Below are positions 17,776 through 55,247 of a DNA stretch of 64,000 nucleotides, one piece after another. Each line of letters starts with the position of its first letter. Positions within the stretch are counted from its first letter, which is position 1. The position numbers and the translations under genes are program-made. The notes under the pieces are model-generated. The model did not search any database. It saw only the letters and a list, made by a program, of their open reading frames with translations, and had not been told where the DNA came from. Origin of the DNA: an uncultured Alphaproteobacteria bacterium (GTDB lineage: Bacteria; Pseudomonadota; Alphaproteobacteria; Paracaedibacterales; CAITNM01); contig CAIQTY010000028.1 in the NCBI GenBank assembly GCA_903874955.1, positions 4,540 through 68,539 of the forward strand. Reading direction: 5' to 3'.

Positions 17776-19365
17776 TTGCACCCAGCGAAACCAATTGAAT
17801 TAAAGTCCCAACAATTTTCATCAAGATTTTCTCTTATTAAACAGGCTAAAGATTTGGTCAATAAAGGGTTCGTAATTATCTGTGATGACCTAAGCCTTTG
17901 GGATGAACTTCAACAATCGGTTGCAACAAAAAAAATCAACCTTGCAGCAGACTGGATTTTAACATTATATACCTTTGCATCGGATAGGAATCTCATAAAC
18001 GCTATCGAATTATTGCGTCACCCGTTACTTCGCGATATCGATGAGACTTATCCAAAAGCAGTTCTAGATTGGGAATATGCCCTGAGGCAATCACAAACAA
18101 AATCTTTCAATACCAGTTTGCCTCAGCATTCCCTCGCGCTGAAAATGGTTGATATAACAACAAAAAATTTCCAGCAAGTTTTCCAAGAAATTATTCAATA
18201 TCTTCCTGCTGAGACTCAAAATAATTTATCATCAATCACTAAATATATGGAATTCCTTGATGGCTCTCCACTATGCCTGGAATGGTTCAAAGGGGTATTG
18301 AAACTAGAAAATCAATTTCCACAAATTCGCCTCGGTATCCATGAAGCGCTCAGTTTTAAACCAAACTATGTAGTTTTTTGTCTAAAGCATGACCAAATCC
18401 GCTCTCTACAAACCCAGCTATTAGTAAAAAAAACAACTTGGGAAAATTTAAAAATTGATGATAAGAGCTTTCTTCATCTGATCAATCATTGGAAAAAAGA
18501 CTCACCCATCAACATTTTAGCCTACCCCCAAGAGGAAACTTTTACCCATCCACTTCTTGGAGATGACTCAATAGAAACAATTGAAATTAAAGCGCTCAAC
18601 GCAGCGTATCAAAAGCCGATTGCGAATCCTCCCCTAAGCAGCAGGCCAAGATCTATTAGTGCAACAGGCTTTGAGTTGCTCATGCAAGACCCTTATGGTT
18701 TTTACGCAAGGTATATTTTAAAACTAAGACCACTTGAGAGAACCGCATCTGAATATTTTGCAAAAGAATTCGGCATTAGTGTTCATAAAGCTATTGAAAT
18801 ATTTTTAAAACAAGGAATGGATGTGGCTTTAAAATACATTCAGGGTCTAGAATTAAGTGCTCATAGAATCTTGTGGTATCCTAGATTGGAGCGAATCCTC
18901 ATTTGGATATCTAGTCAAATCAAGGAACTTAAGGGAAATAAAGTTGAGAGCGAAGAAAGTTTCAAATCTGTATTGGCCCCATCTAATCCTATTACCTTAA
19001 ATGCAAGAATTGATTTGTGCGCTAATATCCCCAAGGGTAACTTAGTTGTTAACTTTAAGACTGGTACACCGCCTAGTAGAGCTGATGTTATAAATGGTTT
19101 TGCCCCACAATTAGCTATAGAGCTGTTTTTAAAAGCATTAACCTGCCCTAGTATTTCCACCCAAGCGGAATTTTGGCAACTAAAAGGTACAAAACCCGCA
19201 GGGGTTGTGGGGGTAAGCACCGCAATCAATCTGCTTGATCTGCAAGGTGAAATTGAAAAAATTATTCTCTACTACCTGAATAAACAAACCCCATTTTTAA
19301 CTTGCCCATGGCCTTCAAAAACGCCAAGATGCAGTGATTATAAAATTTTGGAACGTTCCGAATAA
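17776..19365 (+). CDS. addB: double-strand break repair protein AddB, N-terminally truncated and probably nuclease-degenerate
   Basis: 529 aa. AddB middle region (LLRHPLL) and a C-terminal PD-(D/E)XK-like block ARIDLCANIPKGNLVVNFKTGTPPSRADVINGFAPQLAIE, ending ...CSDYKILERSE. The frame is open but start-less from 17557. It is about half the length I expect for AddB. Confidence 0.8.
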   Translation: MHPAKPIELKSQQFSSRFSLIKQAKDLVNKGFVIICDDLSLWDELQQSVATKKINLAADWILTLYTFASDRNLINAIELLRHPLLRDIDETYPKAVLDWEYALRQSQTKSFNTSLPQHSLALKMVDITTKNFQQVFQEIIQYLPAETQNNLSSITKYMEFLDGSPLCLEWFKGVLKLENQFPQIRLGIHEALSFKPNYVVFCLKHDQIRSLQTQLLVKKTTWENLKIDDKSFLHLINHWKKDSPINILAYPQEETFTHPLLGDDSIETIEIKALNAAYQKPIANPPLSSRPRSISATGFELLMQDPYGFYARYILKLRPLERTASEYFAKEFGISVHKAIEIFLKQGMDVALKYIQGLELSAHRILWYPRLERILIWISSQIKELKGNKVESEESFKSVLAPSNPITLNARIDLCANIPKGNLVVNFKTGTPPSRADVINGFAPQLAIELFLKALTCPSISTQAEFWQLKGTKPAGVVGVSTAINLLDLQGEIEKIILYYLNKQTPFLTCPWPSKTPRCSDYKILERSE

Positions 19366-20624
19366 TGAATAAAACAAAGTCCAGTGCTCATGCTTATCTC
19401 GCTTGGGGTGGGGTAGCATTATTTTTTCTGTATCAGTACATTTTACGTATTGCACCAGGCATTGTAGAACAAGAGCTACGCAGCGCTTTTTATATGACTG
19501 CTAATGATTTTTCTACGCTTGGTTCATTTTTCATGTTTATCTATGCGATTGTCCAAATTCCTTGTGGGATACTCATCGACAGACTTGGTGTAAAACGGGT
19601 GGTTTTATCGAGTATAATGTTATGCTTGTGCGGTAATTGCCTACTTTTTATGGGAAATACATTATGGGAAGCTCAGATTAGCAGATTATTTATGGGACTT
19701 GGTTCAGCATGCGCATATATTGGCTGCATGAAAGTCGCTGCAGATAGTTTTCCCAGTTCTACCAGGGGATTTTTCATGGGAGCAGGATTAACACTTGGGC
19801 TATTCGGCCCACTCTTAGCAGCCAAGCCCTTGGTTATACTTATCGAAAACACAAACTGGAGATACGCTTTCACTGTATTGACAGTAATGGGCGTAATATT
19901 ATGGTTTTGTCTTTTACTAGTAATGCCAAAAGAATCAGTTGATCGGAAAGCTACGCTCAAATGGGATGAAATTAAAGCAAGTATAGTCCATGTTTTTAAA
20001 ACACACACCTTGATTTGCTATGCAATTATGACAACGTGTTTTTACGCTCCATTAGCTGTAATTGCTGATCTTTGGGGGGTATCATTTTTAATGAATCATT
20101 TTCACTTAGATAGATCTAACGCAGCTAACGTGACAATGCAAATTTACGTGGGTGCCGCCGTGAGCAGTTTGCTTATTCCATGGCTTTGCGAACGATATAA
20201 TGCAAACAATAGTGGTATTTTGCTAAGCTGGATAGGAATGGTTTTTTCTATTATGCTTCTTTTGTATACTGATAATCTTTCGACAACAGGTCTTATATTA
20301 TTACTAGTTGCTATTGGTGTTTTTAGCAGTTCTGAAATTTTATGTTTTGGAGCATCCTCACATTTTACAGTTCCAGAAACTTCTGGGACAATCCTTGGAG
20401 TGATCAACACGTTTAATATTTTGGGCAGTGCGAGTATTATGCAAATTGTTGGTTTCTTGCTGGATTATAAATGGAATGGTGCATTAGATGAACAAGGGAT
20501 TAGAATTTATTCAAGCATTGAATATATCTTTGCGCTCAGCTCAATTTTAATTTTTGTATTTGTCCTCGGCATAGTTGCGTTTTTATTTTATAAAAGTGGA
20601 AAAAAACAAGATCAAGCTACATGA
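19365..20624 (+). CDS. MFS transporter
   Basis: 419 aa with about 12 predicted TMs. MFS loop motif GILIDRLGVKR between TM2 and TM3. The start overlaps the addB stop. Confidence 0.8.
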   Translation: MNKTKSSAHAYLAWGGVALFFLYQYILRIAPGIVEQELRSAFYMTANDFSTLGSFFMFIYAIVQIPCGILIDRLGVKRVVLSSIMLCLCGNCLLFMGNTLWEAQISRLFMGLGSACAYIGCMKVAADSFPSSTRGFFMGAGLTLGLFGPLLAAKPLVILIENTNWRYAFTVLTVMGVILWFCLLLVMPKESVDRKATLKWDEIKASIVHVFKTHTLICYAIMTTCFYAPLAVIADLWGVSFLMNHFHLDRSNAANVTMQIYVGAAVSSLLIPWLCERYNANNSGILLSWIGMVFSIMLLLYTDNLSTTGLILLLVAIGVFSSSEILCFGASSHFTVPETSGTILGVINTFNILGSASIMQIVGFLLDYKWNGALDEQGIRIYSSIEYIFALSSILIFVFVLGIVAFLFYKSGKKQDQAT

Positions 20625-22426
20625 TTCGTAACATTACTTTTCTTATTTCAAGCAATATACACGCAATCATATTTAGCATAAGTGGTACATATGTAACCGG
20701 CTGGCCATTAGCAAGTGCCCGATGGTACATGACTTACCTAATCGGACTTGTTCTGGTTTGGACACTGCCAAAGGCAAGCAAGAGGAACATTTTAATAGGG
20801 TATGGTGCCCTTATTTTTGGAGTTTTCGCAAAGTCATATTTTTTGCACCTAACACCAACAATTGAGATGCAAACAATCCCTATTGCTATGTACAAAGAAA
20901 AGTTGATTCAAAAGCACCCATACGTTTCAGAAAAACTTGAGATCTTGTTAAAGACAGAATTTAAAAAAGATATCGATATAGTTGAGAAAAATCCAAAAGC
21001 TTTGAACCCAGGTCATTTCACTATTGATAAGTCTTTTGAGCCAATCTTGTATGATTTTAAAATTTTACATAATTGGATGGATAAATCTAAAACTTGGCTG
21101 ATTCCTTCATATGTAAAAGCTACTCTCGGTGAAATGCCTTTTATGATGGTTTTGGATATAAAATCGGCTAAAAATGGAATATTATGGCCTAATGCAACAG
21201 TTTTTGAAGAAACACCTGATAAAACAATTAAAACATATTCAAAAATGTCCCATCAAGGTTTTGTACTCAAGGATCATATCGGCAGTAAATTTTTTATACC
21301 TTATGTTAAAAACGTAAAAAATAGTGACAACATTTACGTTAATCAGAACTGGATTTATATCGAACTAAATAGTTTATCAGTTTATATTCCACTTATTTTG
21401 CTTATAGCTGCTTTATTTTTAAGCAATGTAAGCTTATTTCCAGATCGCGCTTTTAAAACGATTGAGCAAATTATCTGCATCAGTATTGCTTTTATAACAA
21501 TTTGCATAGGTGATATTGACCCTTACTGGGATTTTTGTGTTGCACCAGTTGAAAAACTCGCCAGTTTAGCTAATTGGATTCACAATGGAATTTGGAGTGA
21601 TTTGGCAAGCGAATCGCCGCTTTGGTATGGCCTGCAGAAAATCATTTACCCATTAGGTTATTTTGGTTATCTCATGCCAATTCTATATTTTTGGGTTGCG
21701 GCATGGGCATTCCTACAATTGATTAGATTATTTTTTACCCCACGCCAATCCTATATTATTTGGGCGATTCTCTTGGCAACGCCCTGGCTTGCAAGACACG
21801 GTATGGGGCTCCATATTTACAAGCCTTTTTACATTTCATACAACTCGTTAATGCTTGGGGTTCCCTTATTTCTGATTGGCCTACTAGGATATTTGAAAAA
21901 GTTCAGTCCACATCACTCAATCGCTTGGATCATGGCTTTTTTTTGTTCGCCCGTATTAGCACCTGGCATATTTGGTTTATTTTTACATAAGCAAATTGGC
22001 AAATATCGCTATGCTTATATCGCAATATGTGCAGGTTTATACCTGTTTTTTAATCACAGTAGTTTTTTAAACGTAGATAAATTGATTGAGAATCCTGTTA
22101 CGGCATGGATTTTATCTGTTGCTAAAAATGATATTAGTCATGATTATTTCCAATTAATGGTCACATATCTAATCCAGAGCCATACGCCTTTTTTCATAAT
22201 TTGTTCGTTTATTCCAACTGTTTTTATGGCATTTTCTCAAAATCTAGAATGGAAAAAGTTGGCAAGGGTAAGTTTAATTATGCATGGTGCCTTTTTATTC
22301 GATGGAACAAGCGTTCAAGATGCTTACCTCGCCTGCACCCTGAGCACTTTGTGCGCTACAATCATTCTTTTTCCTTATTATGAACGGCTTCTTTTTGGAT
22401 ACCAAAAACTTGCAGCAAAGAGCTAG
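20621..22426 (+). CDS. polytopic membrane protein of unknown function
   Basis: 601 aa. N-terminal TMs, then a soluble segment of about 200 aa, then many aromatic-rich TMs. There is a 4-nt overlap with the upstream MFS gene and a 47-nt overlap with addA. I recognise no family. Confidence 0.55.
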   Translation: MIRNITFLISSNIHAIIFSISGTYVTGWPLASARWYMTYLIGLVLVWTLPKASKRNILIGYGALIFGVFAKSYFLHLTPTIEMQTIPIAMYKEKLIQKHPYVSEKLEILLKTEFKKDIDIVEKNPKALNPGHFTIDKSFEPILYDFKILHNWMDKSKTWLIPSYVKATLGEMPFMMVLDIKSAKNGILWPNATVFEETPDKTIKTYSKMSHQGFVLKDHIGSKFFIPYVKNVKNSDNIYVNQNWIYIELNSLSVYIPLILLIAALFLSNVSLFPDRAFKTIEQIICISIAFITICIGDIDPYWDFCVAPVEKLASLANWIHNGIWSDLASESPLWYGLQKIIYPLGYFGYLMPILYFWVAAWAFLQLIRLFFTPRQSYIIWAILLATPWLARHGMGLHIYKPFYISYNSLMLGVPLFLIGLLGYLKKFSPHHSIAWIMAFFCSPVLAPGIFGLFLHKQIGKYRYAYIAICAGLYLFFNHSSFLNVDKLIENPVTAWILSVAKNDISHDYFQLMVTYLIQSHTPFFIICSFIPTVFMAFSQNLEWKKLARVSLIMHGAFLFDGTSVQDAYLACTLSTLCATIILFPYYERLLFGYQKLAAKS

Positions 22427-24827
22427 TAACCCAAAGACTAGCTGCTGGGTTAATGCATCGGCGGGATCTGGTAAAACAAAAGTTCTTATCGACAGAATCA
22501 TTCGTTTGTTGCTGCATGGAGCTAATCCTGAACGAATCCTTTGCTTAACTTTTTCAAGAGCAGCTGCTGGGGAAATGAAACAGCGGCTTTTAAAGCGTTT
22601 GGAATCAATCAGTGAGCTACCTGAGGACAAGATCGGCGATGCGCTGCATGAACTAGGCGAAGAAAACCTGCTAGAAAACATTTTGCGAGCTAAAAACTTG
22701 TATGAAGCTGCACAAATAAAGCCTGTGACTATTCAAACCGTTCACAGCTTTTGCCAAAATTTACTCCAGTTACAACGTGGGAAAAATATATTAACTCCCC
22801 CACCTAGGGTAATGGAAAATTTTGAAGAGAAAACATATTTGAGAAAAGCTTTTCAAGAAGTAGTGAACGACGCTATTGCGGTTCCTTACTTAGAAGATTT
22901 TTTTGCTTTCCATACTGATAAAGTCTTATTCGATTACCTCTCTAAAACAACTAGATATACACAACACAAAAATACAGGAAGTATCAAACAGCGTTTATAT
23001 GAGTTGTTTGATATTACCAGTGCACCTGAATTCCCCTACCCCGCTGATGAAATTCATCATTACTTAAAAGGCCTTTTAAACATTGAAATCCCTCTAGAAC
23101 CAGTGGATAAGGATCACCTTTTTGCACAGTGCTTTATTACCCAAAAAGGAACTACTAGGCAAAAAATTCTCCCAGCTTCAATTCAAAAACAATATCCAGA
23201 TGCTGAAGGTCTTTTAAAAAATTATGCTGAAATGATTGCCCATTATTTCTCAAGAAAAACTCGTTTTGATCAGTTGCAAAAATCTCTGCAATTTTGGCAA
23301 CTCCAACTACTTTTTCAAAAGCATTATAAACAAATCAAAGAAACCCATAATCTTTGGGATTTTAACGATCTTATTGATAAGACGCTACAAATTTTAAAAC
23401 TCGATGACTTTGACCAAATTCTTTTTGAACTCAATTATCGCATTGACCATATTTTAGTTGATGAAGCCCAAGATACAAGTATTTCCCAGTGGCACGTTAT
23501 TGAACACCTGGTTCAAGGATTATTCTATGAGAGCAGTAGAGATAGAAGTATTTTTGTGGTTGGTGATGAAAAGCAATCCATCTATAGCTTTCAAGGAGCT
23601 GACGTGCGTATGTACAAAAACATGCAAGAGCATTTTTCAACGCATTGCGCCCCGTGGGAAAACGTTAACCTCGTTACTAGTTTTCGCAGCGGTCGCACTA
23701 TTTTAAAGCAGATTGATACTATTTTTGCAGAAAATTCAATTGGGCTTGGTGAAAAATTCACAGGACACAATGCTTATCGAAATTTTGCTGGACGAATTGA
23801 AACCCTTGAGCTTAAAAAATCAGAACAACCTACCATTGAGCCATGGCCAATTTTTGAAAACTATCCTGAGGTAATTGAACCCGAACAAATTCTTGCGGAA
23901 CAAGTTTTAAATCACCTTGAAAAAATACTTTCCGATGAACTATTCCTTGAGTCTGAGCAACGTCTTGCTAGTTGGTCAGATATCATGATTCTAATGCGAA
24001 AGCGCGGGAAAATTATGCAAGTCCTAACTAATGCATGCCAAACTCGCCGTATTGCCCACTCAGCTTTTGATCCTAAGAATCTTCTGGAAACCCTTGTGGT
24101 AAGAGACATTTTAACTATCGTTGAATTCATGTTGATGCCGTTAAATGATTTAAATTTAGCAGCACTGCTAAAAAGCCCCTGGATGCAAAGCTTTGGTGTA
24201 ATTAATGAAAATGACCTTTTTACTTTGTGTAATGATCGAAAAGGCTTTTTGTGGGAACAGGTAAAACTCCATTTTCCAAACCATGCTAGGCAGTTGCAGC
24301 AACTATTAGACTGTACTCCTGCAAATGCTTATGGTTATTTTCAAATTGCCTATACAGCTATGAACACGGAATGTGCACTGCTGCATGCTTTTATGGAAGA
24401 CGCTTTTAAACGGTTTAATCTCATGAACCTTAGTATTAGGGAACTTGTTGAGCACCTATATACATATCCACCTATTTATACTCAAGTATCGCAACAAGAG
24501 GGACTAAAAATATCAACAGTTCATGGATCGAAAGGGCTTGAAGCCCCTATCGTGGTCATTCTCGACACTGGAGATGAAACTTCAGCAAAACAAGATATTA
24601 TTTTATATGATCCTGTCGAGCAGTTTTGGTTTTTAAAACCCCCTGCAGCGGCTGATACAGTTTTAACTGCTGCTTTAAAAGAGCATCATCAAAAGGCCTT
24701 AGAAGACGAGAACAATCGACTTTTCTACGTAGCCTTAACCCGTGCCAAAGAGCATATCATTATGGCAGGAATTGACCATGAGGAAACATCTGCCTCTTGG
24801 TACTGGCGTGTGAAAAATCATTCTTGA
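22380..24827 (+). CDS. addA: double-strand break repair helicase AddA (UvrD/Rep SF1 core) lacking the C-terminal nuclease domain
   Basis: 815 aa. Walker A NASAGSGKTKVL, motif II VDEAQDTS, motif III VGDEKQSIYSFQGA, motif VI FYVALTRAKEHI. Only about 30 residues follow motif VI. Confidence 0.85.
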   Translation: MNGFFLDTKNLQQRASNPKTSCWVNASAGSGKTKVLIDRIIRLLLHGANPERILCLTFSRAAAGEMKQRLLKRLESISELPEDKIGDALHELGEENLLENILRAKNLYEAAQIKPVTIQTVHSFCQNLLQLQRGKNILTPPPRVMENFEEKTYLRKAFQEVVNDAIAVPYLEDFFAFHTDKVLFDYLSKTTRYTQHKNTGSIKQRLYELFDITSAPEFPYPADEIHHYLKGLLNIEIPLEPVDKDHLFAQCFITQKGTTRQKILPASIQKQYPDAEGLLKNYAEMIAHYFSRKTRFDQLQKSLQFWQLQLLFQKHYKQIKETHNLWDFNDLIDKTLQILKLDDFDQILFELNYRIDHILVDEAQDTSISQWHVIEHLVQGLFYESSRDRSIFVVGDEKQSIYSFQGADVRMYKNMQEHFSTHCAPWENVNLVTSFRSGRTILKQIDTIFAENSIGLGEKFTGHNAYRNFAGRIETLELKKSEQPTIEPWPIFENYPEVIEPEQILAEQVLNHLEKILSDELFLESEQRLASWSDIMILMRKRGKIMQVLTNACQTRRIAHSAFDPKNLLETLVVRDILTIVEFMLMPLNDLNLAALLKSPWMQSFGVINENDLFTLCNDRKGFLWEQVKLHFPNHARQLQQLLDCTPANAYGYFQIAYTAMNTECALLHAFMEDAFKRFNLMNLSIRELVEHLYTYPPIYTQVSQQEGLKISTVHGSKGLEAPIVVILDTGDETSAKQDIILYDPVEQFWFLKPPAAADTVLTAALKEHHQKALEDENNRLFYVALTRAKEHIIMAGIDHEETSASWYWRVKNHS

Positions 24828-24866: not shown

Positions 24867-25907
24867 TTACTTTGGACTTACTGAAGAAGAGCCTGAGCAG
24901 CAGCATATTATACTGGCTGAAGACTTTTTCGATTCTTTTTTCTGTTGGAAAAATAGCTGAGAAGGTTGATGTATAGTCATGGTCTCTTTATGTGGAGCAT
25001 ATTTCTGTAACACTGAACTTTGAGGCAAATCAGGTGAATTAGAGCCAATTTTTTCTTGCTGGGTAACTTGATTTATAGCCTCATTTGTTGGATTACATTC
25101 CTTGATTTTTAAATCTTTTGAGAGGTTTTGGTTCGGCACGTCTGCATGTTCTTCGTCAGAAGAATAATCCTCCTCATCATCAAAAGGACGTAAAGCTATT
25201 TTGCGAATAATCATAGAATCAGTTCTCGGCTGACAAAAACGTCCTCTATTTTGAGCTAACCATTCCTGGGTTGTAAGTCTATCAGTCATAGACCATGGAT
25301 CTTTAATAAATTCAAAACAATAATTAATTATTATTACAAAATCTTCAGGTTTCGATAATATTTTATAACCACCTTTGAAATGTGCATCATTTTGAAAAGG
25401 GCGATAGTGATTGATGAACTTCGTAGGATCTTTTTCGCCAACACACCAATATTTTTGGTTTTCGGTTATAGCAATAAAAGGAGGTAAAATAAACTCTCCG
25501 CGAGATGGCACGCCTTGCTTTGCGGCTTTGATTAGTTTTTCAAAAGGTTCACCTTTAATGCTTTCTTGTGAAGAGCATCCCCATAAGACTAAGTTAATAC
25601 CTTCAAATTTCTTTAAAATACGCTCCTTTTGCGTATCCCAAGGATCTTCCTCTACAGTTTTGAACCTCGAGCTTTTACCAATCCAGACCGTATCTCTCCA
25701 AGCCCTATCCCAGGTTGTGAGACGTATTTTCTGAAGTTTTTCATTGGTACTTTTTTTAAATTGTATATTATATCTGCTAACGAGTATCGGTAGTTGTCTG
25801 CGGCTTTCTTTATCTTCTTCAACGTATAAAATCTTAAATTCTGTATCACGTGCATCGCTTGCATAAATGCTGAAGCAAATAGAGAAAAACAGTAAAAATA
25901 TTAACAT
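24867..25907 (-). CDS. secreted pseudo-receiver (REC-like) domain protein, paralog of 27564..28298
   Basis: 346 aa. N-terminal hydrophobic segment MLIFLLFFSICFSIYAS|D. The REC-like core (ILYVEEDK, LVLWGCSS, FILPPFIAITEN, HFKGGYKIL) has Gly at the acceptor-Asp position and an insertion. The tail is acidic, then Gln/Ser-rich, ending IICCCSGSSSVSPK. Confidence 0.6.
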   Translation of the reverse strand: MLIFLLFFSICFSIYASDARDTEFKILYVEEDKESRRQLPILVSRYNIQFKKSTNEKLQKIRLTTWDRAWRDTVWIGKSSRFKTVEEDPWDTQKERILKKFEGINLVLWGCSSQESIKGEPFEKLIKAAKQGVPSRGEFILPPFIAITENQKYWCVGEKDPTKFINHYRPFQNDAHFKGGYKILSKPEDFVIIINYCFEFIKDPWSMTDRLTTQEWLAQNRGRFCQPRTDSMIIRKIALRPFDDEEDYSSDEEHADVPNQNLSKDLKIKECNPTNEAINQVTQQEKIGSNSPDLPQSSVLQKYAPHKETMTIHQPSQLFFQQKKESKKSSASIICCCSGSSSVSPK

Positions 25908-26017
25908 TTACATAAAACACAAAAAATTAACATATTGTATATCTAAAGTTATTCTTTTTCATTATAGAATTATTTGCTAAAAAAATTACTAAAACACTAA
26001 TTGCCTAGTTGGGATAA

Positions 26018-26353
26018 TTAAATTGCCTGAATTTTTGCAGCCAGAATAAAATCACTTTCGGTTAGACCGTCGATTTTATGGGTCCAGATTTCAACTGCGC
26101 ATTTTCCCCAGGATATTGTAATATCTGGATGGTGTGCTTCTTGTTCTGCAACAACAGCAATTTTGTTAGCAAAGGCCAACGGACTTAGGAAATCATCAAA
26201 AGTATACGTTTTATATAAGTGGCCAACGTGGTTAATTTGCCAACCGTTTTGTAATTCATTTAAGAAAGTATCAGCTTCGTGCTGATCAAGTGCTGGCACC
26301 CCACCTTGGCAGGGCACGCAGTTTTTATCGGTCAGGGAACATGCAGTGATCAT
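26018..26353 (-). CDS. phhB: pterin-4-alpha-carbinolamine dehydratase
   Basis: 111 aa. Signature [39 protein letters not shown]. It lies immediately downstream of phhA. Confidence 0.9.
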
Positions 26354-26370
26354 ATTAATTTCCTTTTATT

Positions 26371-27174
26371 TTAAATTTTTTCTTGGCTATTGATTATTAT
26401 ACCCTGTTCGATATCAGGAAAAAATAAGCAGGTGTCTTTAATTTCTTCCCAGTCTAGGGTATCTATTGCTTTGAATAGTTGCTCGTAGGTATCAATTACA
26501 AAGTAACTCCTTTGAAATGAATCTATATGGTACTGGGTTTTCATGATTCTTCTGATATCAAATTTAATCCGCACTGGTATATCTGATTCTAAGGAATAAA
26601 TCGATTCCCCCTTGGAAGAGGTTATCCCTGCGCCGTAAATACGCAAGCCTTCTTGCGTACTCATTAGGCCAAATTCTACGGTATACCAGTACAACGCAGC
26701 GGCAAATTTTAGAAAACCATGGTCGATTGCTTCAAGGCCTTTTTTTCCAAATGCCTCCATAAAATCTGCGAAAATGGGGTTAACCAAAAGGGGCACATGG
26801 CCAAAGACATCATGAAAAATATCTGGTTCTTCTAAGTAATCAAGTTGATCAGGGTTTCTTATAAAACAAGTCGCGGGAAATTTTCGCTCAGATAAAAATC
26901 TGAAAAAGAGTTCTTCAGGGATGAATCCCTTAACGGCTACTAGAGAAAAACCTGTCTCTTTTTGCAGTATTTTATTCAATTCTGAGAACTTGGGGATATG
27001 GGTATTACAAATTGAAAGAGTTTTCATACCCCTTAAAATTTCATCAACGGCTCGGCTTTTTAATACAAATTCTTGTCTTTTGAATAAAAAATTCCAAGTC
27101 TCGTGATCCGTTTCGGTAAAATTTTCCCATTTTTCTTGGGTTACCATGGGGTGGTCGTATAAATGTGATGACAT
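26371..27174 (-). CDS. phhA: phenylalanine-4-hydroxylase
   Basis: 267 aa. Aromatic amino acid hydroxylase core with iron-ligand region PDIFHDVFGHVPLL and the later YWYTVEFGL and YGAGITSS blocks. Confidence 0.9.
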   Translation of the reverse strand: MSSHLYDHPMVTQEKWENFTETDHETWNFLFKRQEFVLKSRAVDEILRGMKTLSICNTHIPKFSELNKILQKETGFSLVAVKGFIPEELFFRFLSERKFPATCFIRNPDQLDYLEEPDIFHDVFGHVPLLVNPIFADFMEAFGKKGLEAIDHGFLKFAAALYWYTVEFGLMSTQEGLRIYGAGITSSKGESIYSLESDIPVRIKFDIRRIMKTQYHIDSFQRSYFVIDTYEQLFKAIDTLDWEEIKDTCLFFPDIEQGIIINSQEKI

Positions 27175-27563
27175 CGTTTCTGCTCCAAATAATATTACTT
27201 AAATTAAAATAATCGTTACAAATCGATAATTAATATCGATAAGCGTATAAAATTAGAGAAATTATTAGAGTCAGAAGAATAGAGATATATGGATTATAAG
27301 CTAGGTTGGCTAGCTTTTGCTTAGAAAAAGTAGGAAAAGCTATAGCGTGCAGAAATTCAATAGGTTTGGTTGACATAATTTTCGCCTTTGGAATTGCATT
27401 ATCTTAAAGACCTTACTTTCATTAAAATTATAATAATAAATCATAAATTTTTTCCTTAATAATGTAGTTTAATAATATTTTTTATAGTCAATGTAATAGT
27501 AGATTTTTTGGTAAATAACATCAATCACTTTAAAAATTTAAATCCAGTGTTAACAAAAACCTG

Positions 27564-28298
27564 TTAACAAACGGGAATTTCAGGCTGAATTCTGGTTTCT
27601 GCTGCCCACTCCCCAGGATAGCAAGGAACACTTTCAGCCATTCTAATACAAATGTTACTGCATATTGATAACCAGGAAGTTTCATTTTGAACTTGATGAG
27701 AAACTTTTGAGGTTTGAACTGGATCAGAAGCTTCTGGCAATTGAATTTGAACTGTAATAGGTCCTTCAATAGCATTAGTTTCTTGAATTATATTGGGGTT
27801 ATCAGCAGTAAAATAGCCACCAACATGCGCAGTAAGCCAATTCTCTCCATATAGGTCTTTGCAGTAGTCTAAAATAATCTCTATTTCTCCTCTCTTAACT
27901 TTATTCCATCCGCCAATAAAGTGTTTTTCTTTTGCAAGATCTGACACTTTTCCATCTACATTGTGATATCGTGCATCATCGGTAACAGCAACAAATGGTG
28001 GAAGTATAAAATCATCAACAAGAGCTTTTTGTTTGAGATTTCCGAGAGCCTCATCGCCATTAAGCCTGGCCATATTAATATCGCAAAGAACCAGATGGAC
28101 CCCAACAAGACTGTCTAGAGTAAGCTCATCCCCATCCTCAAAAGTTTTATATTTAAATTTTTCACCATACGATTGGACTAAATTTTTGGTTGCTTGGCGT
28201 ATTACTTTACTGTCTTCAACATACACAAGATTAATTTGTTTTTCACTACTAGCCAAAAGAGGCTTAATTATAAACGCTAAAGATAAAATTAAAACCAT
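27564..28298 (-). CDS. secreted receiver (REC/CheY-like) domain protein
   Basis: 244 aa. N-terminal MVLILSLAFIIKPLLAS|S. The REC landmarks are all present: VYVEDS, LVLCDINMARLNGDEAL, FVAVTDD and GGWNKV. The C-terminal tail has a Cys cluster. There is no output domain. Confidence 0.6.
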   Translation of the reverse strand: MVLILSLAFIIKPLLASSEKQINLVYVEDSKVIRQATKNLVQSYGEKFKYKTFEDGDELTLDSLVGVHLVLCDINMARLNGDEALGNLKQKALVDDFILPPFVAVTDDARYHNVDGKVSDLAKEKHFIGGWNKVKRGEIEIILDYCKDLYGENWLTAHVGGYFTADNPNIIQETNAIEGPITVQIQLPEASDPVQTSKVSHQVQNETSWLSICSNICIRMAESVPCYPGEWAAETRIQPEIPVC

Positions 28299-28453
28299 AC
28301 ATGTATTTTATTTTTTAAATAATAATACATTATTACATTATTTTAAACCTTACTCAAGGTTTTATAAACAAATGTATAAAACTTTTATTCATGATTTCCG
28401 GAAATTTTGGTGTAGTTTTTCAGCAGCACAAATGACGTTAAGGTGTTGCAGGC

Positions 28454-29311
28454 CTATGAAATAAAAGAAAAACTGGAAATATAATAGTTAGGCAAACCGT
28501 TTGACAGGGTGAGATTTAAATTTTTTGGAGGATACTTTTCGCACCAAACTTTACAACCTAATGCATTTCCTGAATGCCCTATAACAAGAGCAGAATCGAG
28601 GCCCATGCTGACTGCCCCTTGTATATCCGTGGATAATGTATCTCCTATACATAAAATCTTTTTTGGGTTTACAGAAGGCAATAATTTTAAGGCTGATCGA
28701 TAAATTTCAGAATTAGGTTTTCCGTAAAAATATACTTTTCCTCCTTTTTGATGATATATTTTTGCCAAAAAACCAGGCCTTATAACTTTTTTGCCATTCA
28801 TGGTAACCGATTCATCCGGATTTACACAAATCATCGGAATATTATACTTGAGCGCATCTTCAAGATTATCATTGTATTTTGCGCATTCTCCTTCTGTATA
28901 AGGAATGGTAAAAACCACCAAGAAGTCTGCCTTCGATAAGCTATCAACTTTTTCAACATTTAAGCCCTGGAAAATATAATCATCCGGAAATTCATCAATA
29001 CAAAATAGTTTAGGTCTTTCTCCACTAAAATTGGGAAAAAGATTATTTTTAGCTTGATGATAAAAAAATTCACCAGATGAGAGAATAGAATAGTACAAAT
29101 CGCTCTTTAAGCCTTTGGTACCCAAAAGTTTTACTAAGGCTGCTGATCTGCGGGGAGAATTTGTTAAAAAAATAAGTGGCTTTTGCTGTCTCTTAATATA
29201 TTGAAGGCATTCAACAGTGCCTGAAAATACATCTCCTCCATCATGAACAACACCCCATATGTCTACGATAAACGCTTCATATTGATCAAATAATTTAGAA
29301 ATAATTTTCAT
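28454..29311 (-). CDS. HAD-superfamily hydrolase, subfamily IIA
   Basis: 285 aa. Motif I FIVDIWGVVHDGG, motif II LTNSPR, and a C-terminal GDTLSTDIQGA motif. Confidence 0.8.
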   Translation of the reverse strand: MKIISKLFDQYEAFIVDIWGVVHDGGDVFSGTVECLQYIKRQQKPLIFLTNSPRRSAALVKLLGTKGLKSDLYYSILSSGEFFYHQAKNNLFPNFSGERPKLFCIDEFPDDYIFQGLNVEKVDSLSKADFLVVFTIPYTEGECAKYNDNLEDALKYNIPMICVNPDESVTMNGKKVIRPGFLAKIYHQKGGKVYFYGKPNSEIYRSALKLLPSVNPKKILCIGDTLSTDIQGAVSMGLDSALVIGHSGNALGCKVWCEKYPPKNLNLTLSNGLPNYYISSFSFIS

Positions 29312-29489
29312 GAAATATATATACTTATCTATTCAATCGAACAATATTTCAGATTGTAATTCAAAAAAATTAACAATTAATAAATTATAATTAAATAACA
29401 ATATTAAACAAATCTCTAAATATTTAGAGATTTGTTAACTATTATCTGATGTAATTAAGACATTACCAAACTGTTTAATTTGATGGTAT

Positions 29490-30962
29490 ATGAAAAATAA
29501 TAATGAAAACCTAGATTCTTACATAGGCGTTGAATTGCCGAAAAACAAATCAACTGCGAGAGAAATTGTTGAGACAGTGGGCTGGGCTCTGGTTGTTATT
29601 GTACCAATCTTGATCTACTTCTTCGCACCTGCCATTACAGTTCAGGGATCAGAAAATCAGCCAAGGCTATTTCTTTGTATTTTATCGTCTACCACAATCA
29701 TGTGGGCTCTTTCATTGTTACCTTCTTTTGTACCAGGGATTTTTGCACTTTTAGCTACGGCTCTTTTATCTCTGACAGATAGTAATACAATTTTAGCAGG
29801 ATTTTCTTCAGCGAACTTTATTATTGTTTTAAGCATCTGCACAATGATTGTTTGTCTTGGGCAATCGGGAATATTAAATAGAATATTATTACATTTTTTA
29901 AGAAACTCATCCTCGGCAAATTCTGCTGGATGGAAAATATTTGGATTTAGCCTTTTAATTACCCCAATAATTCCCTCAGTTATCAGTCGCTGTCAGTTAC
30001 TTGGCCCGCTGATTAATAGACTCAGTGATTATAGTGATGGGCAGAAAAATCACAATAATGATACCCTATTCTACACGAGCGCCTATATTGGGGGGTCACT
30101 TTTAACTAGCTCTTTTTTAAGCGCGTCTTTACTAAATTTTGTTATTATTTCGCTGCTACCATTACAGGAACAGCAGGAGTTTCACATGATTGGGTGGTTC
30201 CAAGCAACCATAGTGCTTACCGCAGTCCTTTTGATAAGCTATTTTTTGTTGATAAGTATATGTTTTTACAATAAAAGCGGATCCTCTTCCCTATTTCATA
30301 AATTTAATATTGAAAATGAGAAAAAAAACAAAATAAGTTATAAGGAAATGGCTTCTTTAGGCATTATAATTTTCTTCTTTGTTGGAATTTTAACAACTCG
30401 TTATCACCACGTTGCAGGAAGCTGGTTAGGTCTCTCCTTACTATTTTTACTCCTAGCCCTAAGACTTGTTAGCATTGATGATTTTAGAAAAAAAGTTGAT
30501 TGGACATTTTTACTTTTTCTAAGCTCGATTATTGGTATAGCGACGACTTTCAAAAGTTTGGGGCTAGATGTATGGACGTATAAACAATTATTAACCCACT
30601 ACCCTCACATTGTGCAAGATAAAGAGTTAATTTTTATTTCCCTAACGATTTTCGTGCTTATTTTAAGATTAGCACTTCCTGTTGGAGCTGTTGTTGCGCT
30701 ATTGGCTTCAATTGCATTAGCAATTGCAGACAAAATCGGTATAAGCGGTTGGGTTTTATGTTTTGTGATATTATTCGTTGGAGACATGTGGTTTTTCCCC
30801 TATCAAAATGAGTTTTATCAGATCTATAAAAATAGCTTTGATATGGAATCACACTCTATCAATGAAAAAAAATTCTTAATAATCAACGCTATATTTAACG
30901 TTATTAAGATATTTGGATTGTATTTAAGTTTTTATCACTGGAAATATTTGAGTTTAATATGA
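29490..30962 (+). CDS. anion permease, DASS/SLC13-like (putative)
   Basis: 490 aa and polytopic. The N-terminal pattern ...IMWALSLLP..VPGIFALLATALLSL...ILAGFSSANFIIVL...GILNRILLHFL resembles divalent anion:Na+ symporter family members. The call comes from motif resemblance only. Confidence 0.45.
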   Translation: MKNNNENLDSYIGVELPKNKSTAREIVETVGWALVVIVPILIYFFAPAITVQGSENQPRLFLCILSSTTIMWALSLLPSFVPGIFALLATALLSLTDSNTILAGFSSANFIIVLSICTMIVCLGQSGILNRILLHFLRNSSSANSAGWKIFGFSLLITPIIPSVISRCQLLGPLINRLSDYSDGQKNHNNDTLFYTSAYIGGSLLTSSFLSASLLNFVIISLLPLQEQQEFHMIGWFQATIVLTAVLLISYFLLISICFYNKSGSSSLFHKFNIENEKKNKISYKEMASLGIIIFFFVGILTTRYHHVAGSWLGLSLLFLLLALRLVSIDDFRKKVDWTFLLFLSSIIGIATTFKSLGLDVWTYKQLLTHYPHIVQDKELIFISLTIFVLILRLALPVGAVVALLASIALAIADKIGISGWVLCFVILFVGDMWFFPYQNEFYQIYKNSFDMESHSINEKKFLIINAIFNVIKIFGLYLSFYHWKYLSLI

Positions 30963-32212
30963 TGAATGTACAAAATTCCGTAGTAAGTATCGTCAAAAAA
31001 ATCATTATGGCACTATGCCTTTGTGTAACTGTAGGATACTTTTTTGTAACAAGCGTACACCGGAAAACCCTCCTGGTTTTGCATAGTTATGGTCAAGATT
31101 ACGCCTGGGTAAGAGATGTAAACATTGGGATAAAACGTGCTATTGGAAAGAGCAATTATAATATTCTATGGCACTACATGGATACGAAAAATCATCCGGA
31201 AGAAGATTTCAAAAAAAAGTCTGGTATTATTGCAAGACGCGTTGTTGATTACGTAAAACCTGATGTGGTCTTAGCAATTGATGATGATGCACAAAATTAT
31301 GTAGCGAAGCATTACGTTAATAATGAGAAAATTAAAATTGTTTTTGCCGGAGTCAACGCAAAAGCAAGTCAGTATGGTTATGATAAAGCTAAAAATGTAA
31401 CAGGAATTCTCGAGAGGGTTCCCTATGAAGGAATAAAAGCAGCTATTCAAACGCAGGCAGATTTGCTTGGTTTAAAACCGCCTTATAAAGTCATTCATAT
31501 TTCAGATCAATCTATCATTGTGAAATATGACGACATTAACTTGCATGAATACAAAAATTGGCACCCTATAAATCTTGTTCCATCTCAACTCGCTGGTACC
31601 TTTGATGAATGGAAGAAAGCTATATTAGAAAGCAAAAAACATGCAGACTTTATTTTAGTATCCAACTACAGGAAAGTATACAAAGATGCTAAAAGCAAAG
31701 AAATCGTTCCTTTTAAGGAAGTTATTCAATGGACATTTAAAAATGCTCCCATACCTCTTATTGGTATTAATGGTTTTGTATGCGAAGAAGGTGCATCTGT
31801 ATCAATTGCCACATCACCTTTTGAGCAAGGGGAAACAGGAGCAAAAATGGCTCTTGCAATTTTAGAAGAAAAAGTAGAGCCATCAGATATTCCTATACAA
31901 ACTAGCACGTATCCAATGGTATTTATGAGCGAAGAACGCCTACCTTTGTCAGGTTTGAAATTTCCTCAAATTTATGAAGCATTTGCCCGTGCTACAGATA
32001 AATTTTTTGGAAAAGTTCAAGAACTTAGTAAACCTAAATCTGATAATAAAGAACAGCCAATCCAACAACCAGTTAATAATTCGCAAGCGGTTAAACAACC
32101 TATCACACCTACTCAAGTTGCTAATCCCCAACAAATTGCTAATACAGCAACAGTCTCTAAACCTTATCCGCCAGTAAACAATATACAACCAGACAGGCCA
32201 GCCAAGCTTTGA
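30959..32212 (+). CDS. membrane-anchored periplasmic substrate-binding/sensor-like domain protein (ABC_sub_bind-like) with a Gln/Pro-rich tail
   Basis: 417 aa. It has one N-terminal TM. The segments LLVLHSYGQDYAWVRD...DVVLAIDDDAQNYV...IVFAGVNA...KNVTGILE resemble the periplasmic domain found at the N-terminus of many sensor kinases. The tail is QQPVNNSQAVKQPITPTQVANPQQ. There is an ATGA overlap with the upstream permease. Confidence 0.45.
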   Translation: MMNVQNSVVSIVKKIIMALCLCVTVGYFFVTSVHRKTLLVLHSYGQDYAWVRDVNIGIKRAIGKSNYNILWHYMDTKNHPEEDFKKKSGIIARRVVDYVKPDVVLAIDDDAQNYVAKHYVNNEKIKIVFAGVNAKASQYGYDKAKNVTGILERVPYEGIKAAIQTQADLLGLKPPYKVIHISDQSIIVKYDDINLHEYKNWHPINLVPSQLAGTFDEWKKAILESKKHADFILVSNYRKVYKDAKSKEIVPFKEVIQWTFKNAPIPLIGINGFVCEEGASVSIATSPFEQGETGAKMALAILEEKVEPSDIPIQTSTYPMVFMSEERLPLSGLKFPQIYEAFARATDKFFGKVQELSKPKSDNKEQPIQQPVNNSQAVKQPITPTQVANPQQIANTATVSKPYPPVNNIQPDRPAKL

Positions 32213-32340: not shown

Positions 32341-34197
32341 ATGCGCTATTTTAAATTTTTTCTTTTCATAGCGTTTAGCACCACTTGCTTAAGGGCAGAA
32401 GTATTAGTTGCCGATTCTTCATCACATTCTCAAAGCGGAATAGAATACCAGGTAGAATGGCCAGAAGTACTTAGCGATGAAATAAGAAAACGCATTGAAA
32501 GTATTTCTATGCTGCTAGAGCATAAGACCCGCCTGCCCGGATCATTTGGTGGTCTTGCAAAGCGTATTGAAAAAGATAAAGAATTGCTTATAAAAACCCT
32601 TCATTCTTTTGGATATTACGGATGCACTGTCAGTGTTGATGTTGAGCAAATTGAATCGCCTGTATTGATTAAATTTAGGGTCGAACTCGGACCAATTTAT
32701 ATAATAGAGGATATAAGGTTAGAAAGTTCTGGTAGCGTTCTCATTGCTTCTCTTCCAGGAGAAATTAGTGAGCTTATTGGGTTGAATAAGGGAGAACCTC
32801 TCATTGCTGAAAAAGCCCAGCAATGCCTTGTTGTATTGAAAAAATTTTTCCTACAGACAGGATATCCGTTCGTTGAAATTAATGAACCTGAAGGGGTGAT
32901 TAATCATCTAAAACACACAGTGGTTTTATATTTTCCTGTTAACCTTGGAGGTAAAGCGATTATTAGTAAATCTGAGGTTGTACCCACGGAAAATTTGAAT
33001 CCAGATTTTATAAGAAATCGTCTTTTTTGGAAAAATGGAGACGTATTCGATAGCCGGATTGTTGAGAGAACCAGAAGACTATTAACTCAGTCTGGCTTAT
33101 TTGAGAACGTTGTTGTCACCCCAAAACCTATTACTGAAACAGAAACTGAAAATAACAAAGAACAACCTATTGTTATGCAAGTAAAAACAACTGAGGCGCC
33201 TCCGCGATCAGTTTCAGCTGGTTTGCACTACGCAACCTCGCAAGGAGGTGAAGCCCGCTTCGCTTGGAATCATTACAATTTGTTGGGTAATGGTGAACAT
33301 TTAGGAGCATCTTTGAGAGTTTCACAAGTCAGAAGTAAAGCACGAATATTTTATGATATTCCTGATCTTGGTGCTCCTAAGCAAACGCTGAAAAATGATT
33401 TGTATGTCATGAGAGAAAACACTCGTGCTTATGCAGGTAAAACTTTTGCAGCTACAACAAAAATTGAACGTCAACTAGATGAAATGCTAAAAGCATCAAT
33501 CGGACTGAGCGCAGAGGAAGGCCATATCAGGCAAAAGACAACGAATAAAAGAAAACCTATCAGTCTTATTGGTGTACCTATTGAATTAGCGCTTGATGGA
33601 TCAAATGATTTATTAAACCCGACAAGAGGCTTTCGCATCGGGGGTCACATCACCCCTTACATGGGGTATTTAGCATCCAGCAAAGGGATGATTATTGGGC
33701 AAGGTACTGCTAGCTTGTATCTGCCTTTTCAAACCAATACGCTTGATGAAGATATGGGGACCCTAGCGTCATTCATTAAATTTGGCACCATAAGGATACG
33801 TAATTTTAGCGATCTGCCTCCTAACAAACGTTTTTATGGAGGCGGTAATGGTTCAATTCGTGCCTACGGATACCAACTTATCAGCCCCGTTGACGAAAAT
33901 CGAACCCCCTTAGGAGGGGAGTCACTCCTTGAATTTGGCACCGAACTTCGTTATCGTTTCACCGAAAAAATGGGGGGCGTTATATTTGTAGAAGCTGGCA
34001 CAGTTACGCAGCGAAAACTTCCCACGTTTAAAACGAAATTACTGTGGGGAACAGGATTCGGCATAAGGTATTACACAGATTACGCGCCTGTGAGACTAGA
34101 TATTGCTTTTCCGCTTCAACGTCGTAAAATTCCAGGAGCAAAAAGACCTTATGATGCCCCCTATCAATTTTACGTAAGCGTAGGGCAAGCATTTTGA
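32341..34197 (+). CDS. tamA: Omp85-family outer membrane protein, TamA-like (translocation and assembly module)
   Basis: 618 aa. Signal peptide, POTRA-like N-terminal repeats, and a C-terminal surface-antigen barrel (RFYGGGNGSIRAYGY) ending in Phe. It is followed by, and overlaps, a TamB-like gene. Confidence 0.8.
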   Translation: MRYFKFFLFIAFSTTCLRAEVLVADSSSHSQSGIEYQVEWPEVLSDEIRKRIESISMLLEHKTRLPGSFGGLAKRIEKDKELLIKTLHSFGYYGCTVSVDVEQIESPVLIKFRVELGPIYIIEDIRLESSGSVLIASLPGEISELIGLNKGEPLIAEKAQQCLVVLKKFFLQTGYPFVEINEPEGVINHLKHTVVLYFPVNLGGKAIISKSEVVPTENLNPDFIRNRLFWKNGDVFDSRIVERTRRLLTQSGLFENVVVTPKPITETETENNKEQPIVMQVKTTEAPPRSVSAGLHYATSQGGEARFAWNHYNLLGNGEHLGASLRVSQVRSKARIFYDIPDLGAPKQTLKNDLYVMRENTRAYAGKTFAATTKIERQLDEMLKASIGLSAEEGHIRQKTTNKRKPISLIGVPIELALDGSNDLLNPTRGFRIGGHITPYMGYLASSKGMIIGQGTASLYLPFQTNTLDEDMGTLASFIKFGTIRIRNFSDLPPNKRFYGGGNGSIRAYGYQLISPVDENRTPLGGESLLEFGTELRYRFTEKMGGVIFVEAGTVTQRKLPTFKTKLLWGTGFGIRYYTDYAPVRLDIAFPLQRRKIPGAKRPYDAPYQFYVSVGQAF

Positions 34198-37100: not shown

Positions 37101-37364
37101 GAATTTAAAACAACAACACGAGGCGGCGTATCAGCAACTGATGAAGACGCAACACCCCAAGAAAGAGCTGCAGCAAAAACAAGCCAAGCAGTGCGTATCG
37201 GCAAAGAATTTGGCAAAGTAAGAGTAGCCATTGAACAAGGGGCTGGAAGCGAAACAAGTAAAGTAGTTGTTTCGACCCCACTCGGAAATAATTTTGCCCT
37301 TGAAGGCGATGTAACCGGAGACCAAAACTCTGGTGTTGGTGTTAATTGGGTTAAACGTTACTAA
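34194..37364 (+). CDS. tamB: translocation and assembly module protein TamB (DUF490 family)
   Basis: 1056 aa. N-terminal TM anchor, a long beta-rich body, and a conserved C-terminal region (PRLDIRA...EEVLALLLFGK...GVGVNWVKRY). There is a 4-nt overlap with tamA. Confidence 0.8.
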   Translation: MMKILFFKKLFISLTLLFIGYQVLHLEVSEKFIIKTLIKAFTPYKAEFIEINGSIGSYFKGNVTCIHLVKNGEQIANIENVSWDIPSLSFRDITLKIHRCAVATSKTPINFDFSNLTPSVIGYVVQKIPKSLKRFNAIEIEAFEIQEKKLKVELRRETKNWVGIIGNNKDTLNFSLSSLDDHSKITVDALWEGKKISLNTEIHETSVHFNGNLITSSFISESAAEFLGQKLNFSGYLENSGQWQLSEFKATTPNGHKLQGTCEQDGEDLKGSFIYDIPLPGIHKVAKCAITLGGSISAPAIKWHFQEGIEPLETAFGECNVIDFNHLKVTGQLHHDPKNTANLNLDIYLNPFSISGSSFVAVQDLQKFLHAFWPTAQGNLDFKATLKNVTGFENGTISVKGDGQVNDADFHLPINIDLDIKDGNGKGFLKLTKGFYKEHPLDADITFNTTSKELHIQKLKLQLQDLRLAILKSTTYNFEKGLTPTTIEFCGGTLEIRKLKLANKPAETTWAIDLHNIKLKGLKIIFGEEDVTGILSGKIVKVEQKPISLSLNLKNALWQRRHNKQFQKILENLNASLNAELENSVWKWDFKIKDQRKINLESKGQANLGDSTIDTHLKGSVQLKFLNDWLATDDRIFGTISINLRAKGSISSPVLEGAVDADNGIYENSEVGTFYQNITIRTKTQGKRLIVTKFDAQDVTESSNPETGQLSGGGWIDFTDPLSPVFNVPMHLFHLRIAQHDGFISDASGTLTITGKGSNVGCKGEVTLEKVSYFLDASPDTKVPKVIDRSQKKDQDKQTKTYATAFPLDILVHTPPGSFKVLGLGTDSSWHGDFYVKKSIVNPFLVGTVTLHEGTLDVLGKVLNITRGTITFVDDDRNNPRLDIRAIKNLGDGVTVAIEIKGTGEKTIVDFTSTPSMPKEEVLALLLFGKKLGEVSVLQSVQLAEIAKSDDSGSGFFEKFRSNFGFDQFEFKTTTRGGVSATDEDATPQERAAAKTSQAVRIGKEFGKVRVAIEQGAGSETSKVVVSTPLGNNFALEGDVTGDQNSGVGVNWVKRY

Positions 37365-54804: not shown

Positions 54805-54828
54805 AAATATATTTCCTTAAATTTCTTT

Positions 54829-55227: not shown

Positions 55228-55247
55228 AAGTCTTTCCTAAAATTTTA

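Follow-up and report, generated by a model that had tools for sequence, protein, structure and literature searches.

Why would a bacterium place an export leader in front of a receiver (REC) domain, and why would two such genes stand on either side of phhA and phhB? Both questions are raised by two open reading frames (ORFs), of 244 and 346 amino acids and here called P244 and P346, in a 64-kb stretch of alphaproteobacterial DNA (contig CAIQTY010000028.1; the whole stretch is referred to as the window). An earlier note on this DNA had described the pair as related, CheY-like and signal-peptide-bearing, and both ORFs were found where it had placed them (Table 1). With moderate confidence, we read them as members of a Sec-exported REC-fold family of Finniella-like symbionts, which is probably directed at the host and tethered to a membrane; export is by far the more secure part of this reading, compared with release into the host or lipidation. 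The proteins would be built in four parts, i.e., a Sec-type leader, a REC domain with an added family helix, a disordered linker rich in Ser, Pro and Glu, and a C-terminal motif of Trp, basic and hydrophobic residues that usually includes a Cys cluster.

The kinship of the two genes was evident in a direct BLASTP comparison (E=3e-9, 24% identity over about 200 aligned amino acids) and with a family profile built without either window copy, which scored 197 bits on P244 and 73 bits on P346, the latter with E=4e-15 for a search space of 1.8 billion. On these alignments P244 and P346 are judged to be true paralogs, in agreement with the earlier note. No third copy of the family was detected in the 64-kb window by a six-frame hidden Markov model (HMM) scan. 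As had also been remarked, neither protein has an output domain and no histidine kinase is encoded within about 10 kb on either side of the window copies. The homolog contexts (2-21 kb) showed no kinase either, and no copy has an HPt (histidine phosphotransfer) gene beside it.

The receiver identity of the family is borderline on sequence alone, and it is profile and structure methods that settle the question. The Pfam profile Response_reg (PF00072) matched P244 with a significant value (E=3e-6), although at 27.8 bits the match stays below the gathering score of 30.2 bits, and it spans positions 3-68 of 111 only, the N-terminal half of the profile. The partial match, and its score, result from the second half of the domain (alpha4-beta5-alpha5), which is highly divergent in this family, unlike in CheY-type regulators. 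Response_reg was matched at E<0.01 by 10 of 22 family members, P346 had no Pfam match at all, and the NCBIfam scan returned response-regulator families below threshold only. When an alignment of 22 family sequences was compared by hhalign with E. coli CheY, the two aligned over CheY residues 3-128 with a probability of 95.9% (E=6e-9), and E28/D29, D73, T106 and K133 of P244 were paired with D12/D13, D57, T87 and K109 of CheY. AlphaFold run on the single sequence of P244 gave a predicted local distance difference test score (pLDDT) of 32, and AlphaFold2 supplied with the 22-sequence alignment gave a pLDDT of 94-98 for residues 21-165. In this model an N-terminal helix (residues 2-15) is detached from the core and the tail is disordered. 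Each of the top 50 Foldseek matches of the model in the PDB was a REC domain, with a probability of 1.00 and a TM-score (TMt, normalised by the length of the target) of 0.70-0.77; among them are CheY, CpxR, PmrA, PhoP and the receivers of fungal Sln1 and hybrid kinases. The model covers P244, and P346 is placed in the REC fold by homology only.

The single-domain response regulators of the CheY type are among the closest known comparisons. The family has in common with them the (beta-alpha)5 fold and the lack of an output domain. The active-site residues also lie in the same places: two acidic residues follow beta1, beta3 ends in the acceptor Asp within D-x-x-M-P-x-x-G, and Thr and Lys come after beta4 and beta5, respectively. 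Among the 25 members analysed, the first acidic residue is conserved in 22/23 sequences and the second in 19/23, the acceptor Asp in 22/24, the Thr in 25/25 and the Lys in 22/25. P244, in which the hhalign pairing gives the complete active-site quintet, looks like a competent receiver, and the CheY landmarks read in it earlier are borne out. Unlike the CheY type, which is cytoplasmic, the family has a Sec-type leader, a Gly at the position of the CheY Y106 switch, an extra helix (LGxxWLxxhVG; consensus yCeekLGxdWLxthVGr), a long disordered tail with a Trp/Cys end, and no kinase nearby. It has other features of its own: helix 1 ends in YN, beta4 is preceded by LPPF, and HFxGG and an invariant Tyr (YHN) are also conserved. 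Two Cys positions of the core were also observed to be well conserved: C72 of P244 (about 28083..28085), directly before the acceptor Asp, is Cys in 18/24 members, and C146 in helix 5 (about 27861..27863) is Cys in 21/25. They may serve in a disulfide, in metal binding or in redox chemistry; a structural disulfide between the two was considered, but the positions do not co-vary.

P346 differs from this pattern and is, judging from its alignment column, a pseudo-receiver, as had been proposed: the acceptor Asp is replaced by Gly (G110, in LVLWGCSS), and the Lys is displaced. It is one of two exceptions at the acceptor position, the other being a paralog on contig L085 with Ser, and the degenerate members of the family are P346 and L085_6382. 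P346 also carries an insert of 30 amino acids after helix 1 (residues 52-81) and smaller ones elsewhere. Pseudo-receivers are REC folds without the acceptor Asp, such as the plant pseudo-response regulators and the N-terminal domain of KaiA. P346 resembles these in that Gly stands in for the acceptor Asp and the Lys is shifted while the core of its family is kept; unlike the known cases it has a leader, a Cys-cluster tail and a place in a tandem array with apparently functional receivers. In population variants of P346 (cluster members P0009, P0011 and P0012) the Thr after beta4, in a column otherwise invariant in the family, is changed to Ile (AIT vs AII), which fits relaxed constraint on a former active site. 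Insertions in the family concentrate in the loop that follows helix 1 and its conserved YN; homologs P0023, P0025 and P0036 carry there a repetitive insert of about 100 amino acids with TLxxLIxxxxLExRDQ-like repeats.

The leader is common to the whole family. Every full-length member begins with a hydrophobic leader of 16-30 residues (best 9-residue Kyte-Doolittle mean 1.9-3.5) directly upstream of beta1, followed by acidic residues. According to the n-h-c and (-3,-1) rules for signal peptides, which were applied by eye or script, both window copies have the hydrophobic core, the helix breaker and the small residues at -3 and -1 that characterise Sec signal peptides cleaved by signal peptidase I (SPase I). 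The layout in P244 is VLILSLAFII-KP-LLA/SS (the slash marks the predicted cleavage site), and in P346 it is LIFLLFFSICFSIYA/SD, ending IYA/SD. Small-x-small ends are found in other members as well (VHA/AE, TYA/AE, IQA/TE, CFA/QE, AYA/KD, AYA/SG and others), many homologs have a basic n-region (e.g., MKTLL, MLKKFT, MLNKFK), and the leader sequence itself is not conserved across the family, as is typical of signal peptides. Known exported proteins of the window have leaders of like length that are also rich in aromatic residues, namely TamA (MRYFKFFLFIAFSTTCLRA/E) and an OmpA-like protein (MKIFTKLPIAFFILGTPLAA/D). Two candidates for leaderless homologs were rejected: the start of P0034 was mis-called, the gene caller having missed an in-frame upstream extension (MLNKFKISILLCFFWYANVMA/AEP), and P0013 (214 amino acids, the P346 ortholog in L001) is interrupted by a scaffold gap of Ns. 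A signal peptidase II (SPase II) lipobox, [LVI][ASTVI][GAS]C, was likewise rejected since Cys is absent from the cleavage site of both window copies; atypical lipobox-like ends (L-Q-A-C, L-N-A-C, L-H-S-C) occur in a few homologs. The comparative pattern argues strongly for export of the family through Sec.

At the other end of the proteins, the REC core is followed by a tail of 30 to about 190 residues rich in Ser, Pro, Glu and Thr, disordered in the P244 model, and most members finish in an aromatic-led (Trp), basic and hydrophobic motif, often with a string of Cys. Examples are SYWRLCCCFPLK, DWRKLLCCKWCCKK, SRWEECLRRLCACA, SWWRSLLCGCR, SCWQLFLNCLR, EYWCFCLPK, GVWRKCCSIK and KRFCCLT, besides the end of P244 (SWLSICSNICIR...IPVC); some members end instead in Cys-free amphipathic helices (LLNNVINSLLLRIK, VNRLARLA). 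The Cys-containing tails that the earlier note had pointed out are present in both P244 and P346. The last 30 residues are 5.6% Cys in the family vs 1.4% in the window proteins, and at least two Cys occur there in 14/24 members vs 4/50 window proteins (Fisher p=7e-6, a value that overstates the evidence, as family members are not independent samples). The mean net charge of the last 30 residues in the family is +2. Strings of Cys beside basic and hydrophobic residues resemble eukaryotic S-acylation sites, and they are odd for a protein residing in the oxidising periplasm. The resemblance to host S-acylation sites, read from the motifs, is a speculative lead. CaaX prenylation ends were rejected for the window copies, since P244 ends in IPVC and P346 in VSPK; CaaX-like ends are found only in P0032 (CCLT) and P0035 (CACA). 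The termini of the window copies do not match PEP-CTERM or GlyGly-CTERM signals either.

The family is rare, small and previously undescribed. When 1.84 billion representative proteins were searched exhaustively by HMMER with a profile of the two paralogs, 22 clusters were found at E<0.001; these, the tandem copies on the contigs and P0036 from a profile search make up the 25 proteins of the analysed set. A word-indexed homolog search returned the query itself only, and three proteins when a profile was given. The peptide patterns HLV[LW]CDIN and EDGD..L had no relative among GTDB species representatives or JGI metagenome contigs, and no curated family of Pfam or NCBIfam covers these proteins. 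Three contigs of one sample, with equal coverage of about 10x, together hold five copies, three of them in tandem in L085 and the others being P0035 and P0018. Identity within the core is 25-50% among members, with P346 the most divergent (at most 31%), whereas the flanking AddA, TamA and TamB on the same contigs are 58-68% identical to those of the window; the family accordingly evolves faster than its neighbouring genes. Literature searches (open-access text) found no precedent for an exported, periplasmic or secreted receiver domain. The fold itself is known; it is the combination of a leader, an intact receiver pocket, a disordered tail and a Trp/Cys motif, in a lineage-specific family of protist endosymbionts, for which neither the two databases nor these searches gave a counterpart.

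As for the carriers, the LeuS of the window is 82-83% identical to that of metagenome-assembled genomes labelled Candidatus Finniella inopinata or Finniella sp., and 58-61% identical to that of Ca. Odyssella and Ca. Paracaedibacter. On this pattern the source of the window is assigned to the Paracaedibacteraceae (Holosporales, Alphaproteobacteria), and within them to a Finniella-like bacterium. Several freshwater metagenome assemblies contain the same sequence. The described Finniella species dwell in the cytoplasm of cercozoan amoeboflagellates and ciliates, and the Holosporales in general are considered obligately host-associated (PMC11909080). No effector of the group has been defined by experiment, and its most conserved candidate delivery device is a type VI secretion system (PMC11909080). 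Many Holosporales have kept flagellar genes (PMC11909080), with which a flagellin gene (Flagellin_N) of the window at 37396..38799 (-), directly after tamB, agrees.

The following course of action is proposed. The leader would take the protein out of the bacterial cytoplasm via Sec, the step for which the comparative evidence is strong. The protein would then act either in the envelope or outside the cell, the latter being more likely as the bacterium lives free in the host cytoplasm. More speculatively, the C-terminal amphipathic Cys motif could serve as a membrane tether, possibly after S-acylation by the host. The REC core of most members, including P244, keeps the Asp/Mg2+ phospho-acceptor pocket and would probably be a binding switch dependent on phosphorylation or metal, and P346, having lost the acceptor Asp, would be a phosphorylation-independent binder if it works at all. 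Multiple copies, fast evolution, Cys tails and carriers free in the host cytoplasm fit host-interaction proteins better than envelope housekeeping. The idea of effectors or host mimics, which the earlier note had offered as speculation, is indirectly favoured by the endosymbiont origin and by the Cys-rich C-terminal motif of the family.

Parts of this proposal have counterparts in other bacteria. Sec-dependent secreted proteins occur in cytosolic obligate intracellular bacteria, e.g., RARP-1 of Rickettsia, which the family resembles in having a Sec leader and disordered regions, in being specific to a lineage and in having a carrier free in the host cytoplasm, although the domain content is unrelated. 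Other effectors are S-palmitoylated or prenylated in the host, such as Salmonella SspH2 and SseI and the CaaX effectors of Legionella. The Cys clusters of the family beside basic or hydrophobic residues (LLCCKWCCKK, WRLCCCF, RFCCLT, RRLCACA, IICCCSG) are similar to those of host-lipidated effectors, as are its fast evolution, its multiple copies and its presence in an intracellular bacterium. However, host-lipidated effectors use type III or type IV systems and have no Sec leaders, none of them is a REC protein, and unlike in the CaaX effectors a CaaX-like end is found in two homologs only, neither of them a window copy.

Several observations weigh against the proposal. The window copies lack a positively charged n-region, 10/24 members have fewer than two Cys in the last 30 residues, and the last 30 residues of P244 itself are net acidic. 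No secretion system or partner gene adjoins any copy, and we know of no phosphodonor outside the bacterial cytoplasm. All members of the family come from metagenomes, so that host association is deduced solely from phylogenetic placement. Moreover, the type VI system favoured for Holosporales does not use Sec leaders (PMC11909080).

A purely periplasmic role is the main rival. The proteins would then be residents of the bacterial envelope without a host target, with the REC domain binding metals or ligands or acting as a scaffold, and the Cys residues engaged in disulfides or metal binding. This is possible, although we hold it to be clearly less probable than the reading proposed above. The leader evidence applies to it equally, and it sits well with the absence of linked secretion machinery at any copy, with the adjacency of the gene to the envelope-biogenesis genes tamA and tamB in three relatives, and with the two conserved core Cys, C72 (18/24) and C146 (21/25). 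However, the adjacency to tamAB is shared synteny and is lost for the copies at rpsB-tsf, in the transposase island and near hslUV-like genes, and the two Cys do not vary together. Fast divergence, paralog expansion and long disordered tails with CC or CCC ends are also atypical of housekeeping periplasmic proteins.

A more specific form of the host-directed reading is that the proteins are secreted receiver effectors, acylated by the host and pinned to a membrane as phosphate sinks or HPt decoys for the His-Asp phosphorelay of the host. Amoebae and ciliates commonly possess hybrid kinase/HPt systems, and pseudo-receivers such as P346 would in that case be competitors that cannot be phosphorylated. 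As a complete scenario this is considered unlikely.

It is also unlikely that the proteins are ordinary cytoplasmic orphan response regulators, the leader being untranslated or an anchor with the N terminus outside, and the REC domain being phosphorylated by an unlinked histidine kinase. P244 has an in-frame TTG at codon 15, its intact quintet is as expected of a working receiver, and a basic n-region is missing from both window copies. The family pattern speaks against use of the TTG, since the leader is in frame in all full-length homologs. In P346 a TAA stands in frame immediately upstream of the ATG, and from codon 1 as far as beta1 there is no further ATG, GTG or TTG in frame; the domain could therefore not be produced without translation of its leader. 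The leader suggested by the earlier note is for these reasons regarded as a translated and conserved feature. Hydrophobic cores of about 10-18 residues are, furthermore, short for a transmembrane helix, and together with the basic n-region and the acidic residues after the leader in many homologs they favour, as far as topology can be predicted, an N-in, domain-out orientation over an anchor that keeps the REC domain cytoplasmic.

The bracketing of phhA and phhB has a simpler explanation. In position the claim of the earlier note was correct, but the arrangement is not conserved. The two paralogs lie in a slot between the addA-like helicase on one side and tamA and tamB on the other, which has the same boundaries and orientation in relatives. 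The helicase of the window is 64-65% identical to the slot-flanking helicase of contigs L084 and L085, and for its tamA/tamB the identity to the genes that flank the slot in L003, L084 and L085 is 58-68%. The order is tamB-tamA, P0034, addA in L084; tamB-tamA, three tandem paralogs, addA-MFS-addB in L085; and tamB-tamA, P0017, MFS-EamA in L003. The equivalent tamA-addA slot of relatives thus holds one to three tandem copies and no phhAB, whereas in this genome further genes have been inserted, namely phhAB, a HAD hydrolase, a CitMHS-type transporter and an ABC_sub_bind-like gene. Other copies lie outside the slot, P0020 beside rpsB-tsf-pyrH, P0018 in a transposase-rich island, P0035 near thioredoxin and P0030 near hslUV-like genes. 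Because the family genes occur in this slot without phhAB and also elsewhere, the bracketing is incidental, the outcome of tandem copies standing in a variable slot, and does not mark a functional unit. A partial gene downstream of the closest homolog, P0016, was examined as a candidate phhA and rejected, as it is not phhA. That P244 and P346 are coupled to phhA and phhB as regulators or accessories of phenylalanine hydroxylation is very improbable: the four genes share one strand and lie inside 3.4 kb, but besides the synteny just described there are gaps of 389 bp (P244-phhA) and 110 bp (phhB-P346), scans of the locus for promoters and terminators did no better than on shuffled sequence, and a protein that is exported would be in the wrong place to regulate an enzyme of the cytoplasm.

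Table 1. Positions in the window of the two paralogs, their parts and the genes around them.
Feature	Position	Strand	Basis or remark
P244	27564..28298	-	ORF of 244 amino acids: leader, REC core, disordered tail, Trp/Cys C-terminal motif
P244 leader, residues 1-17 (MVLILSLAFIIKPLLAS)	28248..28298	-	Hydrophobic core, Pro at -5; L-L-A/S-S fits the (-3,-1) rule
P244 REC core and family-specific C-terminal helix, residues 22-165	27804..28235	-	AlphaFold2 (pLDDT 94-98), Foldseek, hhalign
Codon of D73, predicted phospho-acceptor Asp (CheY D57)	28080..28082	-	hhalign mapping
P244 C-terminal Trp/Cys motif, residues 209-244 (WLSICSNICIRMAESVPC...IPVC)	27567..27674	-	Sequence
P346	24867..25907	-	ORF of 346 amino acids, paralog of P244, putative pseudo-receiver
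P346 leader, residues 1-16 (MLIFLLFFSICFSIYA/SD)	25860..25907	-	Sequence
P346 REC-like core, residues 24-205	25293..25838	-	Alignments
Codon of G110 (LVLWGCSS), acceptor Asp replaced	25578..25580	-	Alignment column
P346 Cys cluster IICCCSG, residues 333-339	24891..24911	-	Sequence
phhA	26371..27174	-	Pfam Biopterin_H, E=2.5e-44
phhB	26018..26353	-	Pfam Pterin_4a, E=6e-29
addA-like UvrD helicase, one slot boundary	22380..24827	+	Pfam
tamA and tamB, other slot boundary	32341..37364	+	Pfam Omp85 and TamB

Some further observations concern the slot and its surroundings. The GC content is 0.33-0.35 over 26000..32000, where the paralogs, phhAB, the HAD hydrolase and the transporter are located, vs 0.38-0.42 in most of the window, and this dip is consistent with a variable, insertion-prone region. 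At 17776..24827 (+), an addB-like PD-(D/E)XK nuclease and the addA-like UvrD helicase are split by an MFS transporter and a polytopic membrane protein of 601 amino acids; the latter has no Pfam match, and its ORF and the start of addA share 47 nt. The order addB-MFS-addA is common to the window and L085. The P0018 island (L091 / L092, 1..4539) contains IS3-type (rve) and IS110-type transposases and several large ORFs without a Pfam match (576 and 1147 amino acids). At 54415..55730 (-) the window has three small tandem paralogs (129, 132 and 160 amino acids), each starting with MKKLSQKKLQFYKIM followed by a hydrophobic segment; they are related to each other with pairwise E=1e-34 and 2e-14, none has a Pfam match, and they are apparently another lineage-specific, exported family. 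Six more ORFs without a Pfam match have signal-peptide-like N termini, at 39008..40183 (+), 42104..43111 (+), 44579..45118 (-), 46980..47624 (+), 49126..50130 (-) and 52541..53194 (+), several of them with poly-Ser or acidic low-complexity stretches. The window would accordingly seem rich in predicted exported orphan proteins.

In bacterial signalling, the receiver domain is the textbook example of a phosphorylation switch in the cytoplasm. This rule is broken by a family that has the phospho-acceptor pocket and yet consistently an export leader, and one must ask what source of phosphate such proteins would have once outside the cell. Protist hosts often run His-Asp phosphorelays of their own, and with carriers that are cytoplasmic symbionts of protists, cross-kingdom interference with two-component signalling becomes a testable idea. 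The family also supplies candidate host-interaction proteins for the Holosporales. If the conservative, periplasmic explanation is true, one of the most abundant bacterial domains would have a new cellular location; if the proteins are secreted decoys, they would be the first secreted receiver-domain effectors.

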